Both the position numbers and the translations under genes were made by a program. This document shows, piece after piece, positions 1 to 62,904 of a stretch of 64,000 bases of DNA (its first letter is position 1; the number at the start of each line of letters is the position of its first letter). The stretch spans positions 672,977 to 736,976 of the forward strand of contig JABHGM010000001.1 in assembly GCA_018672055.1 (NCBI GenBank). The letters run 5' to 3'. Under the pieces are notes generated by a model that had not been told where the DNA came from, made no database searches, and was given only the letters and a program-made list of their open reading frames with translations. The stretch is from a bacterium (GTDB lineage: Bacteria; Patescibacteriota; Patescibacteriia; UBA1558; UBA10009).

Positions 1-175
1 TTTAATATTAAAATAGTTTTCTTTTAAATATTTTACTGATTCATCATTAGAATTATTATCTACAACAATAGTTTCAAATTCAAATGGTAGAGATAGCTTA
101 TTAATTGATTTTAAACAATTCTTGACCATGCCAAGTTGTTTATAGTTTAATATAATAATTGATAATTTCATAATA

Positions 176-2636: not shown

Positions 2637-2880
2637 ACTTTTTTCTAAGCTCTAGTAACCTTTTAAATTTTTCTGGTGAAAGATCTTTATCTCCAAGATT
2701 AGCTTCTTCTTTTTGAAGTGTGGCTAATTCAGTAGCATCCTCCTTTGTCATTCCATTTCTTTCAAATATAATTTCGTGCCTTGTAATATAATCTTCATCT
2801 TTTTCATTGGCACCTTCTCTTACTATATTATCATCTGGATCAAAATTTTCATTTTTTGGAATTTGTTCATTTGACGACAT
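2629..2880 (-). CDS. Hypothetical small acidic protein
   Basis: 83-aa ORF whose boundaries overlap both neighbours in glycan locus 1, E/D/K-rich with no recognisable motif. Confidence 0.3.
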   Translation of the reverse strand: MSSNEQIPKNENFDPDDNIVREGANEKDEDYITRHEIIFERNGMTKEDATELATLQKEEANLGDKDLSPEKFKRLLELRKKYD

Positions 2881-2886
2881 AAGTTT

Positions 2887-3744
2887 TTATTTAATTTTTA
2901 AAATTTTTAGCATTTTAATTACTAAACTATATATTAATGTTATAAGCAAACTTAATGGAGTTAATAGTAATATTATTACCCAAGAAAATTTATTACTATG
3001 TTTCCATAAATATCTTAATCTACTTTTACTAAAAAACCATTGTTTTTTAACAGATGATGCTTGTTTAAAACTAGCATTTCCATAATGTATTACTTTAGCT
3101 ATGGGTGTGTAAATAGTTTTAAAACCTTTTTCTTTGGCCCTGGCTGAGTAATCTACTTCATCAAACCATAGATAAAATTTATCATCCATTAAACCTAGCT
3201 CTTCAAATACTTCACGTCTTATCATATAAAATGAACCCATAACTTGTTCCACTTCTTGTTCTTTACTATAATCTACATTTTTACCTAAGTAATCATTTAA
3301 TATAAAATGTTGAAATCTAAAAATCATAGCTAAATGTATTTTGAAAGTAGGTAATGTTCTAACTGATTCTTGAATTGATCCATCGTAATTTAAAAGCTTA
3401 CAACCTGCTAGACCAAATTCTTTATGTTTATCCATGTGAGCCACTATTTTATCCAAAGCATTATCAATTATTTTTGTATCAGGATTTAATAGTAATAAGT
3501 ATCTACCTGATGCTTGCTTTAAACCCATATTACAACCACCAGAGAATCCTAGATTACGTGACGAGCTAATTATTGTAACTTGAGGAAAATATTCCATCAG
3601 CATTTCAATAGTACCGTCACCTGAATTATTATCAACTACAAAAACTTCAAAATTAATATTCTGTGTTTCTTCAAAAATTGATTTTAAACAATCTTTAAGT
3701 AATTCTTTAACACGCCAACTAACTATTATTATAGATAAATCCAT
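2887..3744 (-). CDS. Family 2 glycosyltransferase
   Basis: GT2 N-terminus (IIIVSWRVKELL...VFVVDNNSGDGT) and a C-terminal TM segment. Confidence 0.8.
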   Translation of the reverse strand: MDLSIIIVSWRVKELLKDCLKSIFEETQNINFEVFVVDNNSGDGTIEMLMEYFPQVTIISSSRNLGFSGGCNMGLKQASGRYLLLLNPDTKIIDNALDKIVAHMDKHKEFGLAGCKLLNYDGSIQESVRTLPTFKIHLAMIFRFQHFILNDYLGKNVDYSKEQEVEQVMGSFYMIRREVFEELGLMDDKFYLWFDEVDYSARAKEKGFKTIYTPIAKVIHYGNASFKQASSVKKQWFFSKSRLRYLWKHSNKFSWVIILLLTPLSLLITLIYSLVIKMLKILKIK

Positions 3745-3745
3745 A

Positions 3746-4894
3746 CTATTGTTTAATTATTTCTAACATTCTATCTACTCTTTTTAACCAACTATGCTCC
3801 TTAACTACTTCTAATCTTTCTTTAATTAATTTATTATTATCTTCTTTTAAAGCTTTTTGGATATGATGATTAAATTGTCTATAATCATTTGTAATATGAA
3901 TTGATTCCTTAAACATTTCAATGCCAGAACCTGAAGTAGATATAATTGGTTTACCACATGCTAAGTATTCAAACATTTTCATAGGATTAGTAAATTTAAT
4001 AAATTTATCTAACTTATGTGGTATTATACCGATATCAAATTGTTGAATATACATAGGTACTTCAGTATATGATTTTCTACCAAGAAAATATATATTTGAA
4101 TACTTACTTAATTTATCAACAATTTCATTATTCCAAACAGGACCTACTATAACAATTGATTTATCATTATTTTCTTTAGCAATAAATTCGACTAAATCAA
4201 TATCAAATCTATCTTGCACTGTACCAACATAACCAATAATAGGTTTTTTAATTGATCCTATATCTCGGTTAACGATTGCATACTTTTGTTGATAATGTTT
4301 AATGTCAACACCATTTGGAATCCAATATACTTTGTCATGATTCAAAAATAAACTTTGCATTTCATCTGATACAGTAAAAATAATATCTGCTTTTTTGGAA
4401 ATTAATTCATAATTTTTTATTATTTTATTTTTAATCTTATTATATGCTGGATGTTCAGACCAATTATCAATGGCATCAAATATTTTTAGATCTGGTTTTA
4501 ATTTATCAAAATAATCTATACTTAGAGGGTAAGCTGACCATAGATGATAATTATTAAACTTAATAACTTTTAAGTACTTATTTAAATTACTATAAAATCT
4601 ATTTTTTGAAATAAATGGAAGTACCGAAGAATAAACAATTAATCTTTTATCTATTTCGTATACTTTAGTAAATAATCCATTTTTAATTACTTTTAACTTA
4701 TTATTTAAATAGTTTTCTTTATAATTCTTTACAAATCTTTTAAAATTATATGGCATATAATCAATAGCTACTATTTTTTCAATATTTTCATTTTTTAGAA
4801 GTGTCTTAAGAATATGATAATTCCTATTTTGGATACCACGTTGCCACTCAGAGTATGAGGACATATTAAACATTACTAAATTAATTTTATTCAT
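3746..4894 (-). CDS. Glycosyltransferase, group 1 (GT4-like)
   Basis: C-terminal GT-B motif ...FEYLACGKPIISTSGSG...; 382 aa. Confidence 0.6.
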   Translation of the reverse strand: MNKINLVMFNMSSYSEWQRGIQNRNYHILKTLLKNENIEKIVAIDYMPYNFKRFVKNYKENYLNNKLKVIKNGLFTKVYEIDKRLIVYSSVLPFISKNRFYSNLNKYLKVIKFNNYHLWSAYPLSIDYFDKLKPDLKIFDAIDNWSEHPAYNKIKNKIIKNYELISKKADIIFTVSDEMQSLFLNHDKVYWIPNGVDIKHYQQKYAIVNRDIGSIKKPIIGYVGTVQDRFDIDLVEFIAKENNDKSIVIVGPVWNNEIVDKLSKYSNIYFLGRKSYTEVPMYIQQFDIGIIPHKLDKFIKFTNPMKMFEYLACGKPIISTSGSGIEMFKESIHITNDYRQFNHHIQKALKEDNNKLIKERLEVVKEHSWLKRVDRMLEIIKQ

Positions 4895-6038
4895 ATTCTT
4901 TAATTATTTGTTCTAAATAACTTGCTTGTTTACTCCATTTAAATTCTTCAACATATTTAATTCCTTGATTTGAAATATCATTATATAACTTTTTGTCATT
5001 AATAAATTTTAATACTGCTTGTCCAAGTTCACCTTTATTTTTAGGATTAATTAATATGCCTGTCTTATTATCTAGTACTGCTTCAGCTATACCTCCTGAT
5101 TTACCAGCAATAATTGGTAAACCAAAGCTACTTGCTTCTAAGTATACAATGCCAAAGCCCTCAACATCACCTTCAATATTCTTTGCTGGCATTACAAATA
5201 AATCTGATAGTTTATAATAAGTAGCTAGTTCTTTATTACTTAACTTGCCTAAAAATATTACATTATTTTCTAAATTTAGTTTTATAACTAATTTTTCTAA
5301 TTCTTTTTGATAATCACCTGTTCCTGCTACTAAATAAACTATATCCGGATTACTATTTAATAATTCTGGAAGTATTTTAATTACTAATTTATGACCTTTA
5401 CGTCTTACAATACGACCTATTGTGATTAACTTAAACTTATCTCTAATATCATGCCTATCTAATTCAACATCAATGTCTTCTTCAGATACTTTATATCTCT
5501 TATCTGTAATACAGGGAGCAGGATATACTATCTTAAGTTTAGTATCGTCTATATTTAGATTATTTAATTCTAGTTTTGTATACTTACTATTTGTAGTTAT
5601 GAATAATGATTTTTTAAGCACCTTCTTCATAATTAATTCTTTTCTTTTATTTTTCTGAGGTAACATAATATCCATACCATGAGTTGAGATAAAATATGGT
5701 ATCTTATATAGCTTACTAATTAAATAACAGGCATTACCTACAGGCAATATATCACCTACCCATATAATATCAATTTTTTCTCTACTAACAATCTTTTTAA
5801 TAAGAATAAACAATTTAAACCATTTAGGATAAAAAAATCTATATAATAATTTTTCACGAATTATAGTAAATTTTTGATCAGTATCAAAATCACTAGCTTT
5901 TTTATAAGGTAGCGTTAAAACCACAAAATCATACTGAGTTGATTTTTTAATCAGATTATAATAATAATTCTCTACTCCACCAGGTTTAGGTGGAAATTCA
6001 AAAGTAACTAGTAATATTCTTTTTTTAGTTTTCTCCAT
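4887..6038 (-). CDS. Family 4 glycosyltransferase
   Basis: EGFGIVYLEASSFGLPIIAGKSGG motif (E-x7-E GT4 signature). Confidence 0.8.
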   Translation of the reverse strand: MEKTKKRILLVTFEFPPKPGGVENYYYNLIKKSTQYDFVVLTLPYKKASDFDTDQKFTIIREKLLYRFFYPKWFKLFILIKKIVSREKIDIIWVGDILPVGNACYLISKLYKIPYFISTHGMDIMLPQKNKRKELIMKKVLKKSLFITTNSKYTKLELNNLNIDDTKLKIVYPAPCITDKRYKVSEEDIDVELDRHDIRDKFKLITIGRIVRRKGHKLVIKILPELLNSNPDIVYLVAGTGDYQKELEKLVIKLNLENNVIFLGKLSNKELATYYKLSDLFVMPAKNIEGDVEGFGIVYLEASSFGLPIIAGKSGGIAEAVLDNKTGILINPKNKGELGQAVLKFINDKKLYNDISNQGIKYVEEFKWSKQASYLEQIIKEYE

Positions 6039-7482
6039 ACTCTTTTTTTACAATACTTTGATATAAAATTTGAACCTCTTCTTTAGATATCATTTTAAAT
6101 AGAAATAGTAGTAATATATATGTCAAACCACCTAGAGGTATCAGAATGATAAAGTTCATATATGACAATAGATAGATTAACAAATAATACATTATAAGTG
6201 AAGCAGCTAATATTTTCAAAAAATTAATAAACAAATATCTAATATTTAACTTAATAATCTGTCCTGACACATAAAATTGTAAACCAAACATGATTATAGT
6301 ACTAATTGTAGAGGCATATGCAGCTCCAAGGTAACTAAACTTTGGTATTAGTACAACATTTAAACATATATTTATGATCATAACTATACCTATATGTATT
6401 GTATTTCTAATTTGTCTGTTACAAGCATTTAATAAAGAACCCAGTGGAAAGTTAATAAATAGAAAGAATAAAGCAATCATTAATATTTTTAAAGGTAATA
6501 TAGAAGGTTCATATTCCTCAGTGTATACTTTTAATATTAAAGGTTTAGCTAAGGCTAAGATACCAAAAGTAATAGGAATTCCTATCATTGAAAGATAGAT
6601 TACTGATTTATGAAATATTTTACTTAATAACTCGTTTGATTTTAAAAAGTAGCTAGAAAATGCTGGATAAAGTGAGGCTACAAAGGCCATTGGAATAAAT
6701 TGTAAGGAAAAAGTAATCTTATATGGTAATGAATAATAGCCAACAGCTGTTTCATCAATTAATTGTTTCAATAATATGGTATCAATATATCCATAAACTC
6801 TTGTAAATATTCCAGCTAATGCAAAAGGTAAGCTAATTATTAGTATTTTTTTAATGATTTTTTTTCTTGATTTATGGAAATATTTAAGTTTTAATTTAAT
6901 TTTTATAAGTAATCCTGAATAGATAAAATTGAATGTACTCGCAGTAAGTAGTGCTAGAATCAAAATTCTTAAGTCATTAGTTATATTTACAATTATAAAA
7001 CCAGATATAGCTAAAATTATCTGGAATAATATTGTACCTAAGCTTTCTATCTTTAAATTTTGATGACCTCTTAATAAAGCATAAAAAGTTAAAGTAAAAG
7101 AATCAAGAACCATAACAATACCTGCTATATATACTAATTGTCTTACTAATAAGTTATCTTCTAATAAATTTATTAATATTACAGCTAGTAAATAGATGAT
7201 TATTGCTAGAGGTATTTTAATTGCTAACGCTGCTGAAAAATATTTTTGGCTTTTTTCTTTAAACTTAGCGACTTCTCTTACTAAAACATTAGAAATTCCT
7301 ATATCAACAAATACTGCTAAAATTGTTGTAAAGAACAAGGCAAAGGTATAATTTCCTAATGAACCTGCTCCAAGCTTAACAGCAATATATGAAAAATATA
7401 CAAATGATATTATTTTTTGTATAACTAATGCACCAGTAAAATAGCTTGTATTCCTGGTTATTTTATTTGTTTTATATTCCAT
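6025..7482 (-). CDS. Wzx-type polysaccharide flippase (MOP superfamily)
   Basis: 485 aa with ~12-14 TM helices and typical polysaccharide biosynthesis protein architecture, at the head of glycan locus 1. Confidence 0.65.
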   Translation of the reverse strand: MEYKTNKITRNTSYFTGALVIQKIISFVYFSYIAVKLGAGSLGNYTFALFFTTILAVFVDIGISNVLVREVAKFKEKSQKYFSAALAIKIPLAIIIYLLAVILINLLEDNLLVRQLVYIAGIVMVLDSFTLTFYALLRGHQNLKIESLGTILFQIILAISGFIIVNITNDLRILILALLTASTFNFIYSGLLIKIKLKLKYFHKSRKKIIKKILIISLPFALAGIFTRVYGYIDTILLKQLIDETAVGYYSLPYKITFSLQFIPMAFVASLYPAFSSYFLKSNELLSKIFHKSVIYLSMIGIPITFGILALAKPLILKVYTEEYEPSILPLKILMIALFFLFINFPLGSLLNACNRQIRNTIHIGIVMIINICLNVVLIPKFSYLGAAYASTISTIIMFGLQFYVSGQIIKLNIRYLFINFLKILAASLIMYYLLIYLLSYMNFIILIPLGGLTYILLLFLFKMISKEEVQILYQSIVKKEYGEN

Positions 7483-7510: not shown

Positions 7511-7541
7511 CAAAAAATCCTCATTAACTGAGGATTTTATA
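7511..7541. terminator. Bidirectional rho-independent terminator downstream of rpsI
   Basis: Hairpin aatcctcattaactgaggatt flanked by an A-run on the 5' side and a T-run on the 3' side. Confidence 0.6.
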
Positions 7542-10561: not shown

Positions 10562-10954
10562 TTATGTCTTTTGAGTTGCTCCAACTTTACCACTGCCCAT
10601 AGTTCTTCTTACATTTCCACGAACTGTTCTAGAATTAGTTTTAGTTCTCTGACCTCTAACAGGTAAACCTCTTGAATGTCTGGAACCTCTATATGATTTA
10701 ATTTCTTTTAATCTTTTAATATTTGATAATTTTTCTCTCTTTAAATCACCTTCTACTTTAAATTCTTTCTCAATTAATGTTCTTAACTTATTTACCTCAT
10801 CATCACTTAAGTCTTTTACACGAATATCACCACTTATTTGAGTATCTTTTAAAATTTTATTTGCTCTACTAAATCCAATACCATAAATAGCTGTTAAACC
10901 AGCTTCAATTCTTTTTTCATTTGGTAGATTTATACTTGCTATTCTTACAGCCAT
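10562..10954 (-). CDS. rpsM: 30S ribosomal protein S13
   Basis: [11 protein letters not shown]...[23 protein letters not shown] matches S13. Confidence 0.9.
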
Positions 10955-10970
10955 AATATTAAATAATTAA

Positions 10971-11084
10971 TTAACCTTGTCTTTGTTTGTGCTTAGGATT
11001 CTTACAAATACAATGAACACGACCTTTGCGTCTTATTACTTTACAATCTTTACAAATTTTTTTAACTGAAGCACGTACTTTCAT
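10971..11084 (-). CDS. rpmJ: 50S ribosomal protein L36
   Basis: Not in the ORF track because it is too short. The minus-strand ORF reads [37 protein letters not shown], which is the C-x2-C-x12-C-x4-H L36 zinc ribbon. It sits between infA and rpsM as in the canonical alpha operon. Confidence 0.85.
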
Positions 11085-11126
11085 AATTTAATGAAATATA
11101 TTTATTAATATAAGGTATTTTTATTT

Positions 11127-11363
11127 TTACATTCTATAGGTAATGCGTCCCTTGGTTAAATCATATGGACTCATTTCAATTCTAACCTTATCCCCAGGTA
11201 ATAAGCGTATCTTATACATTCTCATTTTACCTGATAAATGGGCCAAAATCTCTTGTCCATTCTCTAATTTTACCTTAAAAGTAGTCGAGGGAAGCAATTC
11301 TTCAATAGAACCGATTACTTCAATAAAACCTTTTTGATTTGTTTTTGCTGTGTTTTCTTCCAT
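11127..11363 (-). CDS. infA: Translation initiation factor IF-1
   Basis: S1-like OB fold ([49 protein letters not shown]...) of the IF-1 family. Confidence 0.9.
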
Positions 11364-11501
11364 TTATTACTAATTTGGTATTAAAAAAGAAATTCTTCAC
11401 AAAATACTGTCACTTATTTAACTATATCTCGAATTTTGTTAGAATTTTCCTAAAATTAAGGAAATATTTAATCTTTTTAATAATTTCCACAAGTAGTAAG
11501 A

Positions 11502-11529
11502 ATTTTACACTATTTAAGAAATATGTCAA
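11502..11529 (-). promoter_or_regulatory. Candidate sigma70-type promoter for infA-rpmJ-rpsM... (minus strand)
   Basis: Minus-strand TTGACA (plus coords 11524-11529), a 16-nt spacer and TAAAAT (11502-11507), about 140 nt upstream of the infA start. Confidence 0.3.
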
Positions 11530-11542
11530 GAGTATTCTTTAA

Positions 11543-13294
11543 CTACTCTAAAATTGCCTTAATTCGTCTAATTCCTTTAGATGAGGCGCTTTCTTTCACT
11601 ATTTTAAAGTTCCCTAAATCAGCTATTGATTCAACATGTGGTCCACCACATATTTCTTTTGAATAATCACCTACACTATATACTTTAACCTTATTTCCGT
11701 ATTTATTACTAAATAGACCAATAGCGCCTTGCTTCTTGGCTTCATCAACTGTTAATTCTTCAAAACTTACTTCTAAACCTTCAGATATCTTATTATTTAC
11801 TAAGCTCTCAACTTGTTTTTTCTCTTCATCTGTCATCTTTTCTGAATGAGAAAAATCAAATCTTAGTCTTTCATCATTTATATTACTACCTCTTTGTTCA
11901 ACATGATCCCCTAAAACTTCTTTTAAGGCTTGATGTAATAAATGAGTGGCTGTGTGATATTTAATTGAATTTTCACTATGCCCTACCATACCACCTTTAA
12001 ACTTACCTTTAGTAGCAGTTTTTGATAATTCTTGATGTTTAATAAATTCAGTATTAAAACTTTTCTCATCTACTTTGATACTTTTTTCTTTTGCTAGTTC
12101 CTGAGTAATTTCAAGTGGAAAGCCATAAGTTGAATATAGATTAAAAGCATCTTTTCCTGATATATCATTATCTGATAGTTTATCAAATTCCTTTAAACCT
12201 TTCTCTAATGTTTTTTCAAAAGTATCTTCTTCAAAATTTAACTCATTAATTATTCTTTGCTTATCTTCTTTTAGCTCTGGATAAATATCTCCATATTGAT
12301 CTATGACTATGTTTACTAGCGGTGTTGTAACATCGGTTTCAGTAGTAATACCTATTTTTTTAGCATGTCGTATTGCTCGTCTAACTAATTTTCTAACAAC
12401 ATAACCCTGATCTAAGTTAGAAGGAATAATATTTGCTGGCTCTGACATTATTAAACAAGCGGCTCTAATATGATCAGAAATTATTCTAGCTGATGTTTCA
12501 TTATAATCTAGAGCTTTAGTTTTTAATATTTCAATCATATCTTTAAAGCCTTCAAGTTCATAAACAGATGACTTGCCTTGCATAATTGCGGCAACTCTTT
12601 CTAAACCTAGTCCAGTATCAACATTTTTTTGTTTTAAAGGTATGTATTTACCATCTTCTGGTTTTTCAAATTCTAAAAATACATTATTCCATATCTCAAA
12701 CCAATTACTATCCTCTGGATTAAAATTACTTGGAGCTTTACCTTGACCAGTCCAATAAAATATTTCTGAGTCTGGTCCTTGTGGTCCAACAGAATGACCA
12801 CCTGCAGGCCACCAATTATCATCTTTACCGAGCTTAGCAATTCTTTCTTCATTTATACCAAGCTTTATCCAAGTATCATATGATTCTTGATCAAAAGGAC
12901 AATCTGAATCACCTTTAAATACTGATACTGCAATTTTATCTTTATCTAAACCTAACCATTTATTACTTGTTATAAATTCATAACTTAATTTAATTGATTC
13001 TTCTTTCCAATAATCACCTAATGACCAATTGCCCATCATTTCAAAAAAGGTTAAATGTGAATTATCACCAACTTCATCAATATCCCCTGTTCTAATACAT
13101 TTTTGGGCATCAGTTAACTTTTTACCAGCAGGATGTGTTTCTCCCATTAAAAATGGAACTAAAGGATGCATACCAGCTGTAGTAAAGAGCACAGATGGAT
13201 CATTTTCAGGAATTAAAGAAGCAGAGGGTATTATTACATGATCCTTTGATTCAAAAAATTCTAAGTATTTTGCTCTAACCTCGTTTATTGTCAT
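11543..13294 (-). CDS. alaS: Alanine--tRNA ligase, short form (catalytic + tRNA-recognition + editing domains; no C-Ala domain)
   Basis: AlaRS class II N-terminus (FFESKDHVIIPSASLIP...TTAGM...) and editing-domain motifs (HTATHLLHQALKEVLG, CGGPHV). It is 583 aa versus ~870 aa for canonical AlaRS. Confidence 0.85.
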   Translation of the reverse strand: MTINEVRAKYLEFFESKDHVIIPSASLIPENDPSVLFTTAGMHPLVPFLMGETHPAGKKLTDAQKCIRTGDIDEVGDNSHLTFFEMMGNWSLGDYWKEESIKLSYEFITSNKWLGLDKDKIAVSVFKGDSDCPFDQESYDTWIKLGINEERIAKLGKDDNWWPAGGHSVGPQGPDSEIFYWTGQGKAPSNFNPEDSNWFEIWNNVFLEFEKPEDGKYIPLKQKNVDTGLGLERVAAIMQGKSSVYELEGFKDMIEILKTKALDYNETSARIISDHIRAACLIMSEPANIIPSNLDQGYVVRKLVRRAIRHAKKIGITTETDVTTPLVNIVIDQYGDIYPELKEDKQRIINELNFEEDTFEKTLEKGLKEFDKLSDNDISGKDAFNLYSTYGFPLEITQELAKEKSIKVDEKSFNTEFIKHQELSKTATKGKFKGGMVGHSENSIKYHTATHLLHQALKEVLGDHVEQRGSNINDERLRFDFSHSEKMTDEEKKQVESLVNNKISEGLEVSFEELTVDEAKKQGAIGLFSNKYGNKVKVYSVGDYSKEICGGPHVESIADLGNFKIVKESASSKGIRRIKAILE

Positions 13295-20885: not shown

Positions 20886-20963
20886 GCCAACGTAGCTCAG
20901 TTAGGCTAGAGCAATCCCTTCGTAAGGGAAAGGTCGTCGGTTCGATTCCGACCGTTGGCTCCA
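20886..20963 (+). tRNA. tRNA-Thr (anticodon CGU)
   Basis: Cloverleaf: acceptor GCCAACG/CGTTGGC, D-arm GCTC...GAGC, anticodon loop TTCGTAA (CGT), T-arm GTCGG-TTCGATT-CCGAC, discriminator T and encoded CCA. It is closely similar to E. coli tRNA-Thr(CGU). Confidence 0.8.
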
Positions 20964-25196: not shown

Positions 25197-26777
25197 CTAT
25201 TTTTTAACTAATGGTTTTAAATATTTCATCATAAATCTCTTTACTATTACAACTTCTTCACATGAAGTAATTACACTAAGTATTATATATATAATAATAC
25301 CTGCTAAACCAGCAACTAAACCTTGAGTAAATACACCAATAAAGGTTCTCATATTAACTAAATCTGCCATTATTTGCAAGCAACCATACACTACAGTACC
25401 AGCAAGTACAGAATTTATAGAAGTTAATACTAAAGAATTAACTATTTTCTTATCATCTAAATTACCCATTCTAAAACGTAAAACAAAGAGTAGTCCTAAC
25501 ATATTAACAATAGCAGCAAAAGAAAAGGCCATAGCTAAACCTTCTACACCATATAATTTGCCTAAATAGAGAGAACCAACAATATTTAGAGTTATTGCCC
25601 CAAGTCCAATATAAACAGGTGTCTTAGTGTCTTCTAAGGCGTAAAAAGACCTAGCTAACATTGGAATCAAACTCTGAGCAAATAATGAGACAACAAACCA
25701 ACCTAAAGTTTGTGCTGTGTAATAGGTATCAGACCAATCAAAATTACCAAAACCAAGAATAACTCTAACAATTTGAGCACGAAGCAGAAGCATAAATACA
25801 GAAATTGGAATTATGAGAAATAGTAAACGTCTTAAATTAAGAGAAAAAGTTCTTTTAAAATCTGATTTATCATTACGAGCTAAGCTTTCTGTAAATGCAG
25901 GAAATACTGCAATAGCCAGTGATACACCAAATATAGAAGTTGGTAGGCTTTGTAAATTATTTGCTAAATTAAATACAGCAATTGAACCAACAGCTAAGGT
26001 AGAAGCAATACCAGTTATAACTAACTGATTAACTTGAGAAGCAGCTAGACCAATTGTTCTTGGAATCATTAATTTAAAAACACGTTTTACACTACCAGTT
26101 ATTTTCCAATTAAAACTATATCTATAGCCTACTTTTAGAACTTCAGGTATTTGTACAAGTAAATGTAAAACAGAACCAAAGACTACACCCCAAGCTAGAC
26201 CTTCAATACCCCAAATTGAATGAAAAAATGTTATACCTACAATAATACCTAAGTTATAGAAAACAGGTGCTAAAGAAAAAGTAAAAAACCTTTTTAATGA
26301 ATTTAAAATACCCCCTATTACATTAGATATAGTAAAAAATATAATACTAAGTAACATTATTCTAGATAAAGTAATAGTTTGCATTAATACTTCACCAGAA
26401 AAACCAGGTGTAATAATAGATACTAATTTAGGAGCAAAAATATACATTACTAAACTAATTAGTAATATAAAGACAACTAAGTAATTTAATAAAGTATTAG
26501 CTAGTAAAAAAGCTTGCTTCTTATTTCTAAACCAAGATCTAGTAAACACAGGAATAAATGCGGCAGCTAAAGCCCCGAGAACTAATGTATTAAAAACTAA
26601 ATCAGGTAATTTAAAAGCAGCATAGTAACTATCTAACATGCTGCCAGCACCAAAATATGAGGCAAGTAACCTATCCCTTACTAAACCAAGTATTTTACTT
26701 ATTATAGTAAAGAAAGTAATTAAGACTGCACCACCAGTAACAGTAGTACCCAATTTTTTCCAAATTATAGATAACAT
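25197..26777 (-). CDS. murJ: Lipid II flippase MurJ (MviN)
   Basis: 526 aa with 14 TM helices and the conserved MurJ N-terminus (...ILGLVRDRLLASYFGAGSMLDSYYAAFKLPD...). Confidence 0.85.
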   Translation of the reverse strand: MLSIIWKKLGTTVTGGAVLITFFTIISKILGLVRDRLLASYFGAGSMLDSYYAAFKLPDLVFNTLVLGALAAAFIPVFTRSWFRNKKQAFLLANTLLNYLVVFILLISLVMYIFAPKLVSIITPGFSGEVLMQTITLSRIMLLSIIFFTISNVIGGILNSLKRFFTFSLAPVFYNLGIIVGITFFHSIWGIEGLAWGVVFGSVLHLLVQIPEVLKVGYRYSFNWKITGSVKRVFKLMIPRTIGLAASQVNQLVITGIASTLAVGSIAVFNLANNLQSLPTSIFGVSLAIAVFPAFTESLARNDKSDFKRTFSLNLRRLLFLIIPISVFMLLLRAQIVRVILGFGNFDWSDTYYTAQTLGWFVVSLFAQSLIPMLARSFYALEDTKTPVYIGLGAITLNIVGSLYLGKLYGVEGLAMAFSFAAIVNMLGLLFVLRFRMGNLDDKKIVNSLVLTSINSVLAGTVVYGCLQIMADLVNMRTFIGVFTQGLVAGLAGIIIYIILSVITSCEEVVIVKRFMMKYLKPLVKK

Positions 26778-26823
26778 ATATAGGTATTAATAAACCTCAA
26801 TTTGCATGAGGTATAACTGATAT

Positions 26824-26832
26824 ATTATAGCA
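26824..26832 (-). promoter_or_regulatory. Candidate extended -10 promoter (TGcTATAAT) for murJ-lepA
   Basis: Minus-strand TGCTATAAT about 45 nt upstream of the murJ ATG; weak -35. Confidence 0.3.
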
Positions 26833-26864
26833 AAAAAATCGAATTTAATAAAACAAAAAGCTGC

Positions 26865-26959
26865 GCTATTAGTTAAACATTTTAAAATAATTTTAAGGAG
26901 AGAGATTTCCGTATAAATACGGATAAAATTATTTTAAAATACTAAAGGCGCAGCTTTTT
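26865..26959. repeat. Long imperfect inverted repeat / compound hairpin (~95 nt) with flanking A/T runs
   Basis: Outer stem aaaaagctgcgc/gcgcagcttttt (12 bp), middle stem ttttaaaataatttta (16 bp), inner stem tccgta-taaa-tacgga. There is an asymmetric 12-nt bulge aggagagagatt. T-run on plus and A-run/T-run on minus. Confidence 0.6.
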
Positions 26960-27555
26960 ATCTACAACTAAATTAATGGAGGGTGAATCCCGCTTTGAAA
27001 CGGGCAGAATGATATTTTAGCAAGTTCTTAGTAAAGAAAGAGATCTCACCAAGAAAAGAATGCTAATTTATTAAACTGTTGACAAGCTTTTTAAACAAAT
27101 TAATAAGCTCTCCCCCTCCAATAACTTAGTTGTAAATAACACCGCAAAATATACTAATTTTTAAATATACTTTGATAGTGTGCCAAGGATAAGAAATTAA
27201 AATTTATTTTTATATAAATTATTTCAAATCCTTGGCAATTACTACTTTATCCGTTCTTTTGGGAATATACTATATTTACTTCTAAAATATTTGATCAAGT
27301 TTAATATGTATTCCCCCGGATATTCAACGTTTAGTTGAATTGTGAAATGCAATTAGATTGCATATGGTTGTTTTATCAATAAGTTACTCATAATATTATT
27401 AAACTGGAATATTAGTAGTTACTTTTGATTTTTAAGTTGCCTTATCTTATGATATATCTCCAGGCAAATCTCTCCTTTTTAAGATTGTTTTGGTTTTTAT
27501 TTCCGGCACTTCAGCATCTTGCAGTTTAGATAGTTTTCTAACTCTTAGCAAGAAT

Positions 27556-27590
27556 CAATCATAATAGCACATATATGTATAAATGTCAAG
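27556..27590 (-). promoter_or_regulatory. Strong candidate sigma70 promoter firing into the non-coding block (minus strand)
   Basis: Minus strand reads TTGACA-tttatacatatatgtgc(17)-TATTAT (plus coords ~27585-27590 for the -35). No ORF >12 codons follows. Confidence 0.45.
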
Positions 27591-27610
27591 GATATGGGTT
27601 AAAATGTATT

Positions 27611-27633
27611 AAAAAAAGGCTAATGTTAGCCTT
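27611..27633 (-). terminator. Rho-independent terminator of the 888-aa gene
   Basis: aggcta-atgt-tagcct hairpin; A7 on plus is a U-run on the minus transcript. Confidence 0.6.
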
Positions 27634-27655
27634 AAATAAGATATTATAAAATATT

Positions 27656-30322
27656 CTATTCTTCTCTTGAAATAATAGTTGCGTAAAATTGATCAGTATT
27701 TAACTCAGTACTGAATTTCAATCCATTATCCTTGATTACAGTATCAGAACCATTGGTATTGTTTAACCAGTTAATACTAAAACCTTCTGGTAAGTAAAGA
27801 TATGAATTAAAATAGTTATTTTCTACACCTGATTGCTTTTGAACAAGTAAGCTATGATCTAAAACATCATCCTTTTTAAACCATTTAAAGAAACCGCTTT
27901 CTTCTAAATCTAATTCAAAAGGTAGTCTATATGAAAAGGTTAAAGTAGAACTTTCACCAGGTTCAACTTGTATCCAATGTCCAAATACAGTTTTATTTAA
28001 TTCATTATTTATTCTAGTTCTAGATTTTGGATCTGTATATACTTCACCATTTATATTCAACAAATCAATATCTAAACTATATCCAGAATAAATATCTTTG
28101 AATAATGAATCATCTGGTGGCATGAAACCTGTTACTTCAATTAACTCTGAGCCTTCTGGTACATAAATTCTTAAATAATCAACATTATTATCTTTAGCAA
28201 AAACATATCGAGCATCATCTTCTGGTATTAAGTCACCTTGATGTGATCTTTTAATAGAAACTGTATTTACAATCGAACCATCTGATTCAATATATGAATA
28301 ATGATTAATTTCTTGATTAATATATTCATCCGTCTTACCTCCAGCTATATTTGTATTAACTACCATTAAATAATCATGATCAGTATCTTCAATCTCCCCT
28401 GTCCAACCAAATGATCTTGCCTTTTCTTGCATAGAACTGTCAGGGAAATAGAATTGAAAATCTTTCGATTCAAAAGCACTATTTAAAGTTAAAACCAAAG
28501 GTAGAGTATGTTCTGATTTACTAGATAATAGCTTATCAACTAATAATGGCATTAAATCTCCAATAATTTCTTTTGGCTTATTATCTTCATATTCAAATAA
28601 AGTAGCGTGTTGAAGAGCAAGTACTACATTATCTGGAGTTAATACTTTATCGTACTCTGGCATTTCAATATTTCCTACTACTTCTAAAAGATCTGGAACA
28701 ATTGACGAATTTATTGATATGACACCATCAACTGAAGGCCAGTTAGAATTCTCAAAAAACCAAGTTATTTTTTCAGCAGAAGTTGGAAAATCAGCCCACC
28801 AATTAGCATCCCAAATATTCCAAGCTGTTCCAACTAAATGCATTGGGTCTGGAGATATAACTTTTTTAGTTAAATAGCCTTTTAGATCATATGTACCTCC
28901 TGGAGGAACTTCCATATTAATTATTTCACCTTTAACTAAATCAACTAAAGCAAATGTTCCAAAAAATCCTCCAGTTGGTCTTAACTCATTATTATTTTGA
29001 AACATAAACAAATATCTTTTCGGTGACTCATGTCCTAAAACATCTAATGAAAATTTAAATAACTCACTATTATGATTTAAACTATTTTTTAAAATAGGCA
29101 AAGCTTCTTGTAATTGATTAAATGTATCTCTGTATTCACCAGGAATAATTGAGCTATCAACTTCAATTAAATCAGAAATTACTAGATCAAGATCACTATT
29201 AATCTTTTCTAACCCATTATATATAACAACTAAATTATCTGTTAAAGCTTGATCTAAGTCTTTAAATTCTTGACTCTTACTTAAAACTAAAGTTAATTCT
29301 TGAGCAATATCTGAGAACTTTTCACCAGCACTTACCAATTTTTCAGCAGAACTTACTTTTTTCCCAGTTACTGGCAAACCTTTTAAAATTTCAATGAATG
29401 TATGATTAAAATTATCAGTATACTGTTTTACTTCATTAAAATACTGACTAGCACTACCGAAAGAAATACCTGCTTGTTGCCAATTCAAGTCTTGTATAGC
29501 ATCAACACCCGATTTAAACTCATCTAAAGCAACTTCAGAAACACCTAAGACTTCTCCCTTTGTTTCTTGTAAATATTTATAGAAGAATAAGCCACGTATT
29601 GGAATAATTAAAAGTAGAGCTACTAAAGCAAAATTAAGAGCAAATCTAAAATTAATTAACCACTTTTTATCAAATGTAGGAGTTTTGTGTTTAGTTTCTA
29701 ACTTTTTAATTTTTGGAAATTGATTATATATTTTAATTCCAAAATTATCTAACTTTTCTAAGATTCTTTTTCTTTTTAAAAGATTTGTATAACTTGTTTT
29801 CTTTACGATTGGTACTTCAATATTATTAACTAATTTATCTGGTCCTTCTTTTAAATTACTATCAACCTGATTAAAAAACTTAGTAACCAAACTTTCTGGT
29901 GGTTTTTCTAATTTTGATTTTTTTTGAATTCTATCTTTTAAATTTAATAAATATGCTGAGTTATCTAAACTTTGTGAAGTTTTCTTAGTACTAAACTTTC
30001 CATTTTTAAATAATTTAATTTTAATCTCATTTTTAGGTAATAACTCTTTTTTATTCTTGAGACTTGATTCACTACTAATTATTTTATCTAATTCTGAATA
30101 TACTTTTTGTTTCTTTCTAAATTCTAAACTTTCAACTTGATTCATCTCAGCTAAAAATTCAATTTGTTCATCAATTAAAAGATGATCAAGATTAACATTG
30201 TCCTGATCATTTTTTACAGCTTTAATACGTATTGATTTTTTAGCAGGTTTTTTTCTAATAACTTTACTTTTAACTACCTTTTTTTTCAAAGCCTTTTTTT
30301 GTTTTGTTTTAGCTTTAGCCAT
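27656..30322 (-). CDS. Large membrane-anchored extracytoplasmic protein with Lys-rich cytoplasmic N-terminus; possible DUF4012-like domain
   Basis: 888 aa. The first ~230 aa are extremely K-rich low complexity, followed by a single TM (FALNFALVALLLIIPI) and a ~640-aa extracellular region containing NNELRPTGGFFGTFALVD, a motif I recall from the DUF4012 family (unverified). Confidence 0.5.
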   Translation of the reverse strand: MAKAKTKQKKALKKKVVKSKVIRKKPAKKSIRIKAVKNDQDNVNLDHLLIDEQIEFLAEMNQVESLEFRKKQKVYSELDKIISSESSLKNKKELLPKNEIKIKLFKNGKFSTKKTSQSLDNSAYLLNLKDRIQKKSKLEKPPESLVTKFFNQVDSNLKEGPDKLVNNIEVPIVKKTSYTNLLKRKRILEKLDNFGIKIYNQFPKIKKLETKHKTPTFDKKWLINFRFALNFALVALLLIIPIRGLFFYKYLQETKGEVLGVSEVALDEFKSGVDAIQDLNWQQAGISFGSASQYFNEVKQYTDNFNHTFIEILKGLPVTGKKVSSAEKLVSAGEKFSDIAQELTLVLSKSQEFKDLDQALTDNLVVIYNGLEKINSDLDLVISDLIEVDSSIIPGEYRDTFNQLQEALPILKNSLNHNSELFKFSLDVLGHESPKRYLFMFQNNNELRPTGGFFGTFALVDLVKGEIINMEVPPGGTYDLKGYLTKKVISPDPMHLVGTAWNIWDANWWADFPTSAEKITWFFENSNWPSVDGVISINSSIVPDLLEVVGNIEMPEYDKVLTPDNVVLALQHATLFEYEDNKPKEIIGDLMPLLVDKLLSSKSEHTLPLVLTLNSAFESKDFQFYFPDSSMQEKARSFGWTGEIEDTDHDYLMVVNTNIAGGKTDEYINQEINHYSYIESDGSIVNTVSIKRSHQGDLIPEDDARYVFAKDNNVDYLRIYVPEGSELIEVTGFMPPDDSLFKDIYSGYSLDIDLLNINGEVYTDPKSRTRINNELNKTVFGHWIQVEPGESSTLTFSYRLPFELDLEESGFFKWFKKDDVLDHSLLVQKQSGVENNYFNSYLYLPEGFSINWLNNTNGSDTVIKDNGLKFSTELNTDQFYATIISREE

Positions 30323-32663: not shown

Positions 32664-33641
32664 ATGAGTGATAAAATAGGTAAAAACATAGTAGTAACAG
32701 GTGGTGCAGGCTTTATTGGTTTCCACTTATCTAAGAGATTATTAGAACTAGGTCATAAAGTGACTATTATTGATAATTTAAGTGATTATTATAATACTAA
32801 GCTTAAAAATGATCGTTTAGCTGAAATCACTGAGAATCCAAACATAACAATACATGAAATAGACATATCTAAACCTCAAGAACTAAATGATATATTTAAA
32901 AATAATAATTTTGATTTAGTGTATCATATAGCAGCTCAACCTGGAGTTAGATATTCATTTGAAAATCCAGAAGTATATTTAACTACTAATATTGAAGGTA
33001 CAAATAATATATTAGAGTTGATGGTAAAGTATAAGATAAAAAATATTATATTTGCTTCTTCGTCATCAGTATATGGTAATTCAGATAAAGAATCATTTAG
33101 TGAAGATGATAACACGAGTAATCCTGTCTCACTTTACGCTGTTACTAAATTAACTTGTGAAAGCTTATTAAAATATTATCATCATCAATATAATTTAAAT
33201 GTAATTGCTTTTAGATTCTTCACAGTTTATGGTCCATGGGGTAGACCAGATATGGCACCCTTCCTATTTACAGAAAAAATCTCTAAAGGAAAAGAAATAG
33301 ATGTGTACAATAATGGCAAGCATCAACGTGACTTTACATATATAGATGACATAATAGAAGGTAATATAAAAGCATTGGATGTAATTAAAGATGGAATGTT
33401 TGAAATAATTAATTTAGGCAATTCTAAATCAATTGAACTAGAATACTTTATTTCAGTGATAGAAAAAGAATTAAATCAAACAGCAAAAAAGAATTATCTA
33501 CCTATGCAACCCGGAGATGTTGTAAAAACGTCAGCTGATATTAGTAAAGCTAAAGAGTTACTTAATTGGCAACCAACAACTTCAATAGAAGTAGGTATGA
33601 ATAAATTTATTAACTGGTATAAAGATTATTTTAAAATTTAA
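32664..33641 (+). CDS. NAD-dependent nucleotide-sugar epimerase, UDP-glucuronate 4-epimerase-like (SDR)
   Basis: [22 protein letters not shown]...[17 protein letters not shown]-terminus and YAVTK catalytic YxxxK closely resemble the UDP-GlcA 4-epimerase (Cap1J/LpsL) subgroup. Confidence 0.6.
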
Positions 33642-33652
33642 ATAGTATAAAT

Positions 33653-34684
33653 ATGAAAAAAGCATTAATAACCGGTATCACCGGACAAGATGGAAGTTAC
33701 TTAGCAGAATTCCTATTAAAAAAAGGTTATGAAGTATATGGTATACAACGCAAGGCTTCTACTTTTAATACAATTAGAATTAATCATATATATGATGATA
33801 ATCCTGAAGTAAAAAACTTTCACACAATATATGGTGATTTAACAGATGGTAGTAATTTAAGTAGAACTATAGAAAAAATAAGTCCAGATGAAATATATAA
33901 CTTAGGAGCACAAACTCATGTTCAAGTTAGTTTTCAAATTCCAGTCTATACTTCTAACGTAGATGGCTTAGGTGTTCTTAGAATGCTTGATGCAATTAAA
34001 GAATCTGAAATTAAAACTAAATTCTATCAAGCTTCTTCATCAGAAATGTTTGGTAATAGTAAAGAGTCTCCACAGAATGAAAATACAATATTTAATCCTC
34101 GTTCACCATATGCCTGTGCTAAAGTTTTTGCACATTATTTAACAGTTAATTACAGAGAAGCATATAATCTATTTGCTTGTTCAGGTATACTATTTAACCA
34201 TGAATCACCAAGAAGAGGCGAAACATTTGTTTCAAGAAAAATAACTAGAGGTTTTGCAAGAATTAAACTAGGGTTAGATGATAAATTAATACTTGGTAAC
34301 TTAGAAGCTAAAAGAGATTGGGGTTTTGCTCCTGAATATATAGAAGCTATGTGGTTAATGTTACAACAAGATAAACCTGATGATTTTGTAATAGCTACTG
34401 GAGAAAATCACACAGTAAGAGAATTTGTGGAAAAAACAGCTAAATATTTCGATTTTGATTTAGAATGGCAAGGAACAGGAGTAAAAGAAAAAGGAATTGA
34501 TAAAAAATCAGGTAAAATAATTGTAGAAATAAGTGAATCATACTTTAGACCAGCAGAAGTTGATGAATTAATTGGTGATTATTCAAAAGCTAAAGAATTA
34601 CTTAATTGGGAACCTAAAGTTAAATTCGACGAATTAGTTAATATAATGTCAGAAGCAGATTTTAAACAACAAGATAAAAAATAA
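33653..34684 (+). CDS. gmd: GDP-mannose 4,6-dehydratase
   Basis: [28 protein letters not shown]...; catalytic YACAK; full-length Gmd (343 aa). Confidence 0.85.
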
Positions 34685-34687
34685 TTT

Positions 34688-35626
34688 ATGATTAAAGACA
34701 AAAAAATATTAGTAACTGGAGGATCAGGTTTTCTAGGTAAACGTGTTATTAAACGTTTAAAAGAAGAAGGATATAATTTCTGTAGCACTTCTTTAAGTGA
34801 AGGTGTTGATTTCAGAAATTATAATCAAACAATTGAATATTTTAAAAAAGAAAAACCTGATATAGTAATTAACTGTGCAACATTTATAGGTGGTATAAAA
34901 TTTGGAATGGATCATAGAGGTGAAATATATTATAATAATACATTAATATCAAATAATTTAATTGAAGCTTCTAGAGAACTTAAAGTAGAAAGATTCATTA
35001 ACCCAATTTCAAACTGTTCATACCCAAATGTTGGAGATAGAAAATTTAAAGAAGAAGACTGGTGGCAAGGAGAACTAGATGAATCAGTTATGGTTTATGG
35101 AATGTGTAGAAAAATGAGCTGGGTTCAAGCTTACGCATATCATAAACAATATGGTATGAATTTTATTAACTTAATTATTCCAAATATGTATGGACCTGGT
35201 GATCATTTTGAAGAAGTAAGATCACATGCTCTCGGTGCTCTAGTCATGAAAATTGTTAAAGCTAAAGAAGAAAACTTACCAGAAGTAACTGTTTGGGGTA
35301 CAGGTAGCCCAGTAAGAGAATGGTTATATATAGATGATACAGTAGAAATATTATTAGAGTCACTTGAAATAGAACCATTTATTGAAGCAATAAACATTGG
35401 TGTAGGAAAAGGCGTTACTATAAAAGAATTAGCAGAAACTATAAAAGAACAAGTAGGTTATGAGGGTAATTTAACTTTTGATACAGAAAAACCAGATGGT
35501 GCTCCTTATAAAGCGATGGATATAACAAAGAGTAAAAAAATATTTAAAAATTTACCTAATACAGAATTAGATCAAGGAATTAAACAAACAATTGAATATT
35601 ATTACAAAGAAGTATTAAAAAAATAA
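34688..35626 (+). CDS. fcl: GDP-L-fucose synthase (GDP-4-keto-6-deoxymannose 3,5-epimerase/4-reductase)
   Basis: Fcl block ...PNMYGPGDHFEE...VTVWGTGSPVREWLYIDD...INIGVGKGVTIKELAETIKEQVGYEGNLTFDTEKPDGAP... aligns with E. coli Fcl (...PTNLYGPHDNF...VVVWGSGTPMREFLHVDD...VGYKGRVVFDASKPDGTP...). It lies directly after gmd. Confidence 0.8.
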   Translation: MIKDKKILVTGGSGFLGKRVIKRLKEEGYNFCSTSLSEGVDFRNYNQTIEYFKKEKPDIVINCATFIGGIKFGMDHRGEIYYNNTLISNNLIEASRELKVERFINPISNCSYPNVGDRKFKEEDWWQGELDESVMVYGMCRKMSWVQAYAYHKQYGMNFINLIIPNMYGPGDHFEEVRSHALGALVMKIVKAKEENLPEVTVWGTGSPVREWLYIDDTVEILLESLEIEPFIEAINIGVGKGVTIKELAETIKEQVGYEGNLTFDTEKPDGAPYKAMDITKSKKIFKNLPNTELDQGIKQTIEYYYKEVLKK

Positions 35627-62875: not shown

Positions 62876-62904
62876 AAAGGACTTCCTAAAAGTCCTTTTT
62901 TTTA
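62876..62904. terminator. Bidirectional rho-independent terminator
   Basis: aaaggactt-cctaa-aagtccttt followed by T8. Serves the convergent 62333 (+) and deacetylase (-) genes. Confidence 0.65.

Follow-up and report, generated by a model that had tools for sequence, protein, structure and literature searches.

Several large, multi-domain structured RNAs of bacteria, including the raiA motif RNA, OLE, ROOL, and GOLLD, are restricted to particular lineages and recur in the same gene neighborhoods, and they are not known to have an established biochemical function. Here we describe a locus of this general kind in a 64-kb stretch of a Patescibacteria genome (contig JABHGM010000001.1; the whole stretch is referred to as the window). 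It occupies the 878-bp gap, at positions 26778 to 27655, between murJ, the lipid II flippase gene, and a gene for a DUF4012 protein. The original prediction had offered two readings of this gap, a lineage-specific structured noncoding RNA (ncRNA) or a long regulatory leader of murJ. Our analysis supports the first of these: two RNA domains recur in about 15 related Patescibacteria loci, with compensatory changes in both and a promoter in 14 of the 15. We consider it highly probable that the gap encodes an independent and functional structured ncRNA whose family is missing from Rfam 15. The family is new and of a familiar general kind, that of the orphan structured bacterial ncRNAs. Its function would center on an invariant purine/pyrimidine helix and on an exposed strand, the CU box, that resembles an anti-Shine-Dalgarno sequence.

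Gene-like anatomy and two conserved folds

The window is a compact segment of about 27 to 30% G+C, in which genes mostly overlap and lie on the minus strand. The gap upstream of murJ had been singled out as by far the largest in this stretch, and at 878 bp it is indeed unmatched among its noncoding stretches. The only other long gap (10954 to 11543, minus strand) is occupied by rpmJ (10971 to 11084) and infA (11127 to 11363); it has a TTGACA-16-TAAAAT promoter at 11529 to 11502 and is thus ordinary. Relative to dinucleotide shuffles, the folding z-scores of the murJ gap are −11.7 (minus strand) and −10.0 (plus strand).

The gap had also been said to contain no open reading frame (ORF) longer than 12 codons. 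This is correct for ATG-started sense ORFs, the longest of which has 12 codons, and incorrect for TTG-started ones, which reach 34 to 36 codons; the latter lack conservation across homologues. When the 10 longest stop-free stretches of the gap were searched against Pfam, there was no meaningful match (best E value, 0.07), and tblastn of the ORFs that relatives carry at this position, including a membrane ORF of 221 to 246 amino acids, gave no match to the gaps. Together with the comparison of ORFs, these searches gave a negative answer to the question of a decayed pseudogene, which had been named as a possible refutation. A small ORF reading from GGAGG...CAUGC in element 1 was also considered and was rejected; it has 0 to 18 codons and is not conserved.

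Read on the minus strand, the region presents, in order, the terminator of the DUF4012 gene, a promoter, a 5′ extension of about 415 nucleotides (nt), two folded domains that we call elements 1 and 2, the murJ promoter, a small hairpin, and the murJ ATG (Table 1). The near-consensus promoter claimed for this strand is there, with 11 of 12 matches, a 17-nt spacer, and an extended −10 TG; in the whole 64 kb, a perfect −35 hexamer, 17-nt spacing, and the extended −10 TG come together at this site alone. Transcription is predicted to start at about 27554 and to end at about 26850, for a transcript of about 700 nt, and the predicted transcripts of the homologues range from 377 to 704 nt. Fourteen of the 15 homologues have exactly one site each with 11 to 12 of 12 matches (TTGACA, 16 to 17 nt, TATAAT-like), and 13 of these promoters have the extended −10 TG. 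The 15th, L219 (homologous loci are designated here by L numbers), lies on a truncated contig, with just 172 nt upstream of element 1. Between promoter and element 1 there are 23 to 424 nt, depending on the homologue. Near-consensus extended −10 promoters are associated with abundant stable RNAs, and the RNA encoded here is probably a stand-alone, abundant one.

Conservation is concentrated at the 3′ end of the gap. According to nhmmer and MAFFT, relatives that have a gap at this position share only the 3′ third of the window’s gap. L212, whose MurJ is 83% identical, is the closest relative; its identity to the window is 89% in element 1 and 87% in element 2, compared to 79% in murJ DNA and 77% in the DUF4012 DNA, so that both elements are more conserved than the genes on either side. 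The proximal part of the 5′ extension is 66% identical in L212, and the distal part is not alignable. Because the elements outscore the flanking genes while the 5′ extension is poorly conserved, we take the selected unit to run from 27139 to about 26850; the conserved, functional part of the RNA would thus be its last 300 nt or so, elements 1 and 2, with a variable 5′ extension. Three perfect local hairpins had been reported in the gap, and all three were recovered, the largest in the repeat finder list and the two smaller ones in the sequence and in the minimum-free-energy fold. However, all of them lie in the poorly conserved 5′ part, and they do not belong to the conserved RNA.

Element 1 lies in a 182-nt unit closed by a 29-nt inverted repeat (26958 to 26986 with 27111 to 27139) that is 86% complementary. 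A long helix, P1, leads to the branches P2, P3 (with the loop AUCUCUUUCUU in most members), and P4 (CCCG-loop-CGGG). The core helix, GGAGGGRGAGAG / UUCRCCCUCC, is an essentially invariant pairing of polypurine with polypyrimidine; in the purine tract, the exceptions are GAAAG in L003 and GGGGGG in L219. A covariance model of element 1 built from four sequences, R1, gives 168 bits in the window and 69 to 180 bits in L004, L207, L003, L005, L212, L219, L222, L217, L225, and L223. Weaker matches, of 36 to 42 bits, are found in L011 and in three loci with a larger P3 (L007, L010, and L224), for a total of 15 distinct loci; the best background score in about 0.7 to 0.8 Mb of unrelated metagenome DNA is 27 bits. 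In an 11-sequence alignment, 93% of cells are paired, compared to 40 to 58% in slid controls.

Element 2 corresponds to the compound hairpin of the original prediction, with arms at 26855 to 26873 and 26941 to 26959, a perfect 17-nt pair at 26879 to 26895 and 26924 to 26940, and a U-run after it. The closing stem (AAGCUGCG / CGCAGCUU) is nearly invariant and is followed by UUUUU, a terminator-like arrangement in which both the stem and the U5 are conserved among homologues. Beyond it are further helices with internal loops between them and then an apical junction, made up of one helix, a variable hairpin, and the invariant single strand AAAUCUCUCUCCU. This strand, the CU box, occurs once in the window, is invariant in 13 of 13 element 2 sequences, and is unpaired in every minimum-free-energy fold. 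The covariance model of element 2, R2, gives 69 bits in the window and 66 to 111 bits across 13 loci (the window and 12 homologues); it is weak in L011, where a GC-rich variant that retains AAAAUCUCUCUCCUC scores 33 bits, and has no match elsewhere among 90 sources. With a hand-specified structure, 94% of cells are paired, compared to 23 to 48% in slid controls. In L005, the stretch between the two elements (4563 to 4750, about 190 nt) is GC rich and contains the short direct repeats GCGAACCGC, CAGCG, and GTCAGCG, which are not in the other homologues.

A covariation analysis of the homologous regions upstream of murJ had been proposed as a check on the structured RNA, and compensatory changes are found in both folds. 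In element 1, 16 of 53 pairs show compensatory change, compared to 8.3 ± 1.8 in shuffles; in element 2, 14 of 26 pairs do so, compared to 5.5 ± 1.4. None of 500 shuffles reached the observed number in either case. Several pairs are predominantly G-U on the murJ-sense strand and would be A-C mismatches on the opposite strand, and both models score far higher in the sense than in the antisense direction (168 versus 49 bits for R1; 69 versus 40 bits for R2). These two observations together place the RNA on the murJ strand. The locus therefore has the anatomy expected of a stand-alone ncRNA gene, with a predicted promoter and terminator, no conserved ORF, structure conserved at the RNA level, and a defined strand.

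The Infernal/Rfam scan that had also been proposed was run, and no family matches the gap. At gathering thresholds, the 4227 covariance models of Rfam 15 identified only a tRNA in the window, at 20886 to 20960, and nothing in 12 further homologous loci. With thresholds relaxed, the gap and the RNAs of L007 and L010 gave subthreshold noise only, such as miRNA and snoRNA models at 14 to 23 bits. One can envision that the RNA is a housekeeping RNA, such as 6S RNA, RNase P RNA, transfer-messenger RNA (tmRNA), or signal recognition particle (SRP) RNA, that has diverged in this phylum beyond the reach of the Rfam models. A strong promoter, an anatomy like that of stable RNAs, and a size of 380 to 700 nt would fit, and 6S RNAs in particular are hard to detect by sequence. 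However, no hallmarks of these RNAs had been seen by eye, and the Rfam and ARAGORN scans are likewise empty. ARAGORN found neither a tRNA nor a tmRNA in 26500 to 27900, and the tRNA-like acceptor/T-arm domain and tag reading frame of tmRNA have no counterpart here. The conserved regions CR-I and CR-V of RNase P RNA, from which its P4 pseudoknot is built (GAGGAAAGUCC ... ACAGAA..GGCUUA), are absent from the region, and cmscan reports no RNase P match at an E value of ≤10. There is no cmscan match to SRP RNA, whose helix 8 has conserved symmetric and asymmetric loops and a GNAR tetraloop cap, and element 2 has an apical hairpin that varies both in its sequence and in its length. 6S RNA is folded as one long, irregular hairpin (about 180 nt), the large bubble at its center resembling an open promoter; the fold described here is a four-way junction followed by a rod with a three-way junction, without an RF00013-type match. 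About half of the close relatives also lack the RNA at this locus. We regard a diverged housekeeping RNA as most improbable, to the point of being essentially excluded.

Table 1. Features in and around the murJ-linked RNA locus; positions are those of the window unless a homologous locus is given
Feature	Position	Strand	Remarks
DUF4012 protein gene, 888 amino acids	27656-30322	minus	
Intrinsic terminator of upstream DUF4012 gene, AAGGCUAACAUUAGCCUU + U-run	27616-27633	minus	Terminator scan; end of preceding transcription unit
RNA promoter, TTGACA-17-TG-TATTAT	27561-27589	minus	−35, 27589-27584; −10, 27566-27561; 11/12 matches
5′ extension, lineage-specific, ~415 nt	27137-27553	minus	Local hairpins 27181-27237, 27320-27338, 27347-27363
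5′ purine box, AAAGGAGAGAUUU	27466-27478	minus	Complements CU box; p = 0.02 vs shuffles
Element 0 (approximate)	L005:4259-4359, L222:2436-2533, L219:29-133, L225:1920-2030		
Element 1	26963-27136	minus	Four-way junction; outer P1 pairs reach 27139/26958
Purine tract, UUGGAGGGGGAGAG (consensus UUGGAGGGRGAGAG)	27108-27121	minus	Inner P1 and start of P2; near-invariant in three alignments
Pyrimidine strand, UUCACCCUCCA (consensus UUCRCCCUCC)	26977-26987	minus	Near-invariant; pairs with purine tract around a purine-purine mismatch
Element 2	26855-26956	minus	Rod-like hairpin with apical three-way junction; U-run to ~26847
CU box, AAAUCUCUCUCCU	26896-26908	minus	Predicted single-stranded, in three-way junction of element 2
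murJ extended −10 box, TGCTATAAT	26824-26832	minus	Read from sequence
murJ 5′ untranslated region hairpin, ACCUCA-loop-UGAGGU + U-rich tail	26794-26812	minus	
murJ	25197-26777	minus	PF03023, E = 4e-98

Linkage to murJ and distribution among relatives

The exact MurJ protein is found on many metagenome contigs (67 were seen, for example, in ENA ERZ27250245). The nearest genomes are metagenome-assembled genomes of Patescibacteria/Parcubacteria, for example, GW2011_GWF2_45_11, with Komeilibacteria as neighbors, and the order glycosyltransferases-DUF4012-murJ-lepA is widely conserved. The gap between the DUF4012 gene and murJ is essentially nonexistent in some relatives and is 500 to 1200 bp in others. 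In a neighbor-joining tree of MurJ, the RNA is found in three subclades, whose MurJ proteins are all at least 66% identical to that of the window, and in the outlier L011. It is absent from the murJ locus of the interspersed relatives L006, L008, L009, L017, L018, and L026, as well as from that of the more distant relatives sampled (L012, L014 to L016, and L226 to L228).

The outlier (MurJ 56% identical; 3256 to 4090) has a version of about 850 nt, in which element 1 is weak (36 bits); it also has a GGGGAGAGAG hairpin (3598 to 3689) and two more terminator-like hairpins before murJ. In L013, the CU-box sequence is found in a similar hairpin upstream of murJ that neither covariance model detects. 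A metagenome search by a gapped element 1 pattern, with no genomic context required, gave at least 120 stretches; among the matches listed, one was a true member, L207, and the others were GC-rich chance matches. The element 2 pattern had 10 matches in viral contigs, all by chance within unrelated sequence.

Presence and absence of the block among relatives with identical synteny, together with its richness in inverted repeats, could suggest nonfunctional DNA, either a pseudogene in decay or what is left of a mobile element of the miniature inverted-repeat type. Moreover, three distant relatives, L017 (3363 to 4028), L018 (4258 to 4923), and L026 (4204 to 4944), have an apparently multipass membrane ORF between the DUF4012 gene and murJ, at the place where other relatives have the RNA; it is the ORF used in the tblastn searches described above and has no detectable similarity to the RNA region. 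Against such an origin, the conserved part exceeds the flanking genes in identity, and selection on the RNA itself is evident from the compensatory changes and from the strand-specific G-U pairs. The block is single copy in the 64-kb window, both by BLAST and by the two covariance models with filters off, and in relatives it always occupies the same locus. We saw neither terminal inverted repeats nor target-site duplications. The consensus promoter is conserved wherever there is enough upstream sequence, and both tblastn and Pfam came back empty. Nonfunctional DNA is thus very hard to credit, and we consider decay products and mobile elements essentially excluded.

A more serious rival takes the RNA to be a cis-acting leader or riboswitch of murJ, with element 1 as the aptamer and element 2 as the terminator platform; competition between the P1 strand and the CU box for the purine tract would control readthrough into murJ or whichever gene comes next. 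In all 15 loci, the RNA is upstream of murJ and co-oriented with it, despite differences in the upstream neighbor (DUF4012, a radical-SAM gene in L222 and L223, and a methyltransferase gene in L225), and this constancy would also fit a role in cis. The RNA ends in a conserved stem and U-run, the purine tract in one strand of P1 has two alternative complements, as in classic riboswitch logic, and a four-way junction with invariant core nucleotides is aptamer-like. In L225, where a NUDIX gene (2430 to 2891) lies between the RNA and murJ, that gene starts 29 nt after the RNA terminator, has no obvious promoter of its own, and so may depend on readthrough.

Set against this are several features of the loci. 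The original prediction had given murJ its own extended −10 promoter, which we find as TGCTATAAT in the window; of the 14 homologues whose locus is complete, 13 have a TGnTATAAT-like box at the same position, between terminator and start codon, the box of L010 being poorer. The spacer between elements 1 and 2 ranges from 7 to about 190 nt and contains unrelated hairpins. The CU box is in the apical junction, outside the terminator stem, so its capture would not block that stem. L003 keeps element 1 followed by a plain terminator, without element 2, and close relatives with the same DUF4012-murJ synteny lack the RNA altogether. The near-consensus extended −10 promoter of the RNA is of the type typical of abundant stable RNAs. 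In two homologues, finally, a gene is interposed between the RNA and murJ: the NUDIX gene of L225 and a 345-amino-acid ORF (3844 to 4881) in L007. The RNA is persistently linked to murJ yet separable from it. Given the murJ promoter and the interposed genes, a long regulatory leader is the less likely of the two original readings, and we judge the cis-acting leader or riboswitch to be unlikely.

A small hairpin of the form (A/G)CCUCA-loop-UGAGG is present in the 5′ untranslated region (UTR) of murJ, about 15 to 20 nt before the ATG, in 12 RNA-bearing genomes (the window, L003, L004, L005, L007, L207, L212, L219, and L222 to L225). Twelve genomes have both the RNA and the hairpin, about 10 have neither, and none has the hairpin alone. 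The hairpin could be a 5′ stabilizer, an attenuator, or a target site; a hairpin of the same type is the ordinary terminator of rpsI at 7533 to 7519. We did not count the co-occurrence as evidence for a functional link between the RNA and the hairpin. The two features are about 100 nt apart, so that one deletion removes both, and related genomes are not independent; in addition, the predicted pairing with the CU box amounts to only about 6 bp, and the same hairpin type serves as a terminator elsewhere.

Because the linkage to murJ is persistent, a role related to the cell envelope is plausible. The RNA lies within a large region of cell-envelope and polysaccharide genes (1 to 7482 and 30381 to 59182 on the minus strand, with 32664 to 35626 on the plus strand). 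It encodes several GT1, GT2, and GT4 glycosyltransferases, Wzx-like and Wzy/O-antigen-ligase-like proteins, and sugar epimerases/dehydratases, and a polysaccharide deacetylase at 62902 to 63582 belongs to the same region.

Complementarity between the CU box and the purine tracts

The purine tract of element 1 has a second complement, in a shifted register, in the CU box, where GGGAGAGAG can pair with CUCUCUCCU over 9 to 10 bp. In a scan of both strands of the window, this tract (27120 to 27110) is the best same-strand partner of the CU box, at −14.8 kcal/mol. The second-best same-strand partner, at −13.7 kcal/mol, is the 5′ purine box (27478 to 27469); in the comparison with shuffles, the duplex energy of this box was −14.4 kcal/mol (p = 0.02). 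The long-range complementarity that had been noted early on, between 27478 to 27466 and 26908 to 26895, therefore stands, and the one same-strand site in 64 kb that surpasses it is also inside the RNA.

Purine boxes complementary to the CU box recur in 5′ extensions that are otherwise unrelated, with p values of ≤0.023 in 6 of 13 leaders; besides the window, these are L005, L222, L219, L011, and L010 (p = 0.000 to 0.023). The boxes of L212 and L225 are weaker and not significant (p of about 0.15). In one subclade, the stretch from the promoter to element 1 accommodates a further long hairpin, element 0, whose arms are GAGGAGGGAAUUGAGGAGAGAG and CUCAUCCUCAAUUCUUUCC. In L005, L222, and L219, element 0 bears UUGAGGAGAGAGU, an 11-bp perfect complement of the CU box, at about −20 kcal/mol. 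Element 0 looks like a partial duplicate of the purine/pyrimidine core of element 1. L003, the sole homologue without element 2, is the one with the mutated tract GAAAG. In the window and L212, the tract has G in place of A where the box has U in place of C, which adds one pair.

Since both the purine tract and the 5′ boxes find an alternative complement in the CU box, the RNA could toggle between two states. In our reading, the very strong, sigma-70-type promoter at 27589 to 27561 would start a transcript of about 700 nt, which would end at the closing stem and U-run of element 2, at about 26850; murJ would then be transcribed from its own extended −10 promoter. In state A, the four-way junction would be closed and the CU box free. 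In state B, the CU box would be captured within the same molecule, by the purine tract or by the 5′ purine boxes. When free, the CU box, in its likeness to an anti-Shine-Dalgarno sequence, might pair with purine-rich RNA resembling a Shine-Dalgarno (SD) sequence or might bind a protein. This specific pairing-switch mechanism is tentative, and we consider it clearly less likely than not; for the explanation as a whole, a stand-alone ncRNA gene on the murJ strand with such a switch, our confidence is slightly above even, as a compromise between the highly probable ncRNA and the tentative mechanism.

The genome itself makes little use of SD sequences. Only 4 of the 64 ORFs in the window have an SD-like motif (GGAG, GAGG, or AGGA) 7 to 9 nt before the start codon, and the start regions of the remaining ORFs are simply AU rich. 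The SD-led genes, at 16454, 16993, 62134 (minus strand), and 62333, encode three small proteins without a Pfam match and one NUDIX hydrolase. The SD regions of three of them are among the weaker predicted partners of the CU box, at −11 to −12 kcal/mol. In an almost SD-less genome, an RNA with perfect GGAGG tracts and what appears to be an exposed CUCC-type strand is conspicuous.

Several considerations tell against a stand-alone RNA working as a pairing switch, in addition to its constant placement upstream of murJ. The CU box is invariant and the purine tract nearly so, which puts their pairing beyond the reach of covariation; the paired changes in the window and L212 are a single hint, at the level of one lineage. 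In the closed fold, the purine tract is fully paired in P1 and P2, so that the switch is hypothetical, and pairing of the CU box would have no obvious effect on the terminator stem. The trans sites predicted in the window are weak, at the −11 to −12 kcal/mol given above. The promoter, start site, and terminator are predictions, and the family has been sampled almost wholly through loci linked to murJ. A triple helix of the CU box on the P1 core was considered as well and set aside as unsupported; by hand reasoning, the polarity fits Watson-Crick pairing and not parallel Hoogsteen pairing.

Invariance of sequence is equally compatible with a protein-binding or scaffold RNA, either as a component of a ribonucleoprotein (RNP) or as a protein sponge, in which the invariant helix with its mismatch, the CU box, and the closing stem would be protein sites. 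These segments are invariant while neighboring helices covary freely, which implies sequence-specific recognition, and a closing stem as nearly invariant as AAGCUGCG / CGCAGCUU would be unusual if it served only in termination. The strength of the promoter suggests abundance, and purine/pyrimidine modules are repeated in element 0 of L005, L222, L219, and L225. However, no candidate protein partner is genetically linked to the RNA, given that the neighbors other than murJ vary, and the complementarity between the boxes is above chance, which a model of pure protein sites does not require. We regard a scaffold or sponge as rather unlikely.

One can also envision a version of the pairing switch in which the RNA is a sensor-coupled riboregulator acting in trans. 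Element 1 would bind a metabolite or factor, plausibly an envelope precursor, and binding would set whether the purine tract stays in P1 or captures the CU box, thereby gating the CU box. As an anti-SD mimic, the free box might silence the few SD-led mRNAs or might engage the anti-SD region of the ribosome. This elaboration seems to us quite improbable; if true, it would bring to light a novel class of aptamer and a novel regulatory logic, in a phylum of uncultured bacteria with reduced genomes.

Significance and comparison with described RNAs

Genomes of the Patescibacteria, also called the candidate phyla radiation (CPR), are very small and tightly packed, yet about 0.9 kb is devoted here to an RNA locus. 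Our literature search for RNA motifs of the CPR, of Parcubacteria, or linked to murJ found no prior description, and no CPR-specific structured RNA came up in it. If real, the RNA would represent a new family of structured RNAs, notable for strong support by covariation, an invariant core of an unusual kind, an exposed anti-SD-like strand, and a lasting linkage to the lipid II flippase gene. Such an RNA offers a possible entry to gene regulation and RNP biology in uncultured CPR bacteria, and R1 and R2 are two covariance models ready for surveying CPR genomes. The finding is not a paradigm shift alone, as orphan structured RNAs are already known and the function proposed here is inferred.

Among described systems, the raiA motif RNA, OLE, ROOL, and GOLLD are like the murJ-linked RNA in that it, too, is multi-domain, hundreds of nucleotides long, backed by covariation, restricted to a lineage, found in a recurrent gene neighborhood, and predicted to be a discrete transcript. 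It differs from them in that it matches none of their Rfam models, belongs to the Patescibacteria, combines a polypurine/polypyrimidine core with an exposed CU box, a hallmark not known from those RNAs, and has a smaller conserved core, of about 300 nt.

The CU box calls to mind the C/U-rich, anti-SD-like seeds of RsaE/RoxS and of Staphylococcus RNAIII. As in those RNAs, there is an invariant single-stranded pyrimidine motif complementary to GGAG, in an RNA with its own predicted promoter and terminator. The murJ-linked RNA, in contrast, is larger and more structured, and its best complements are internal; its host hardly uses SD sequences, and there is no sequence or Rfam relation between them.

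Riboswitch leaders provide a third comparison, including SreA/SreB and EutX/Rli55, which also act in trans, and the cell-wall-linked ydaO cyclic di-AMP and glmS riboswitches. They share with the murJ-linked RNA a junction domain followed by a stem and U-run, a position upstream of and co-oriented with an envelope gene, and two mutually exclusive complements of one strand. They differ from it in that the murJ-linked RNA matches no known aptamer, has a long and variable spacer, and places the competing strand outside the terminator stem, and in that murJ has its own promoter.

Finally, as with 6S RNA and CsrB-type sponges, the murJ-linked RNA is probably abundant, being predicted to arise from a consensus promoter, and its repeated short motifs could titrate a partner. 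It departs from these RNAs in lacking the rod and bubble of 6S RNA and in having no match to them in Rfam, and its repeated motifs are not GGA in hairpin loops.

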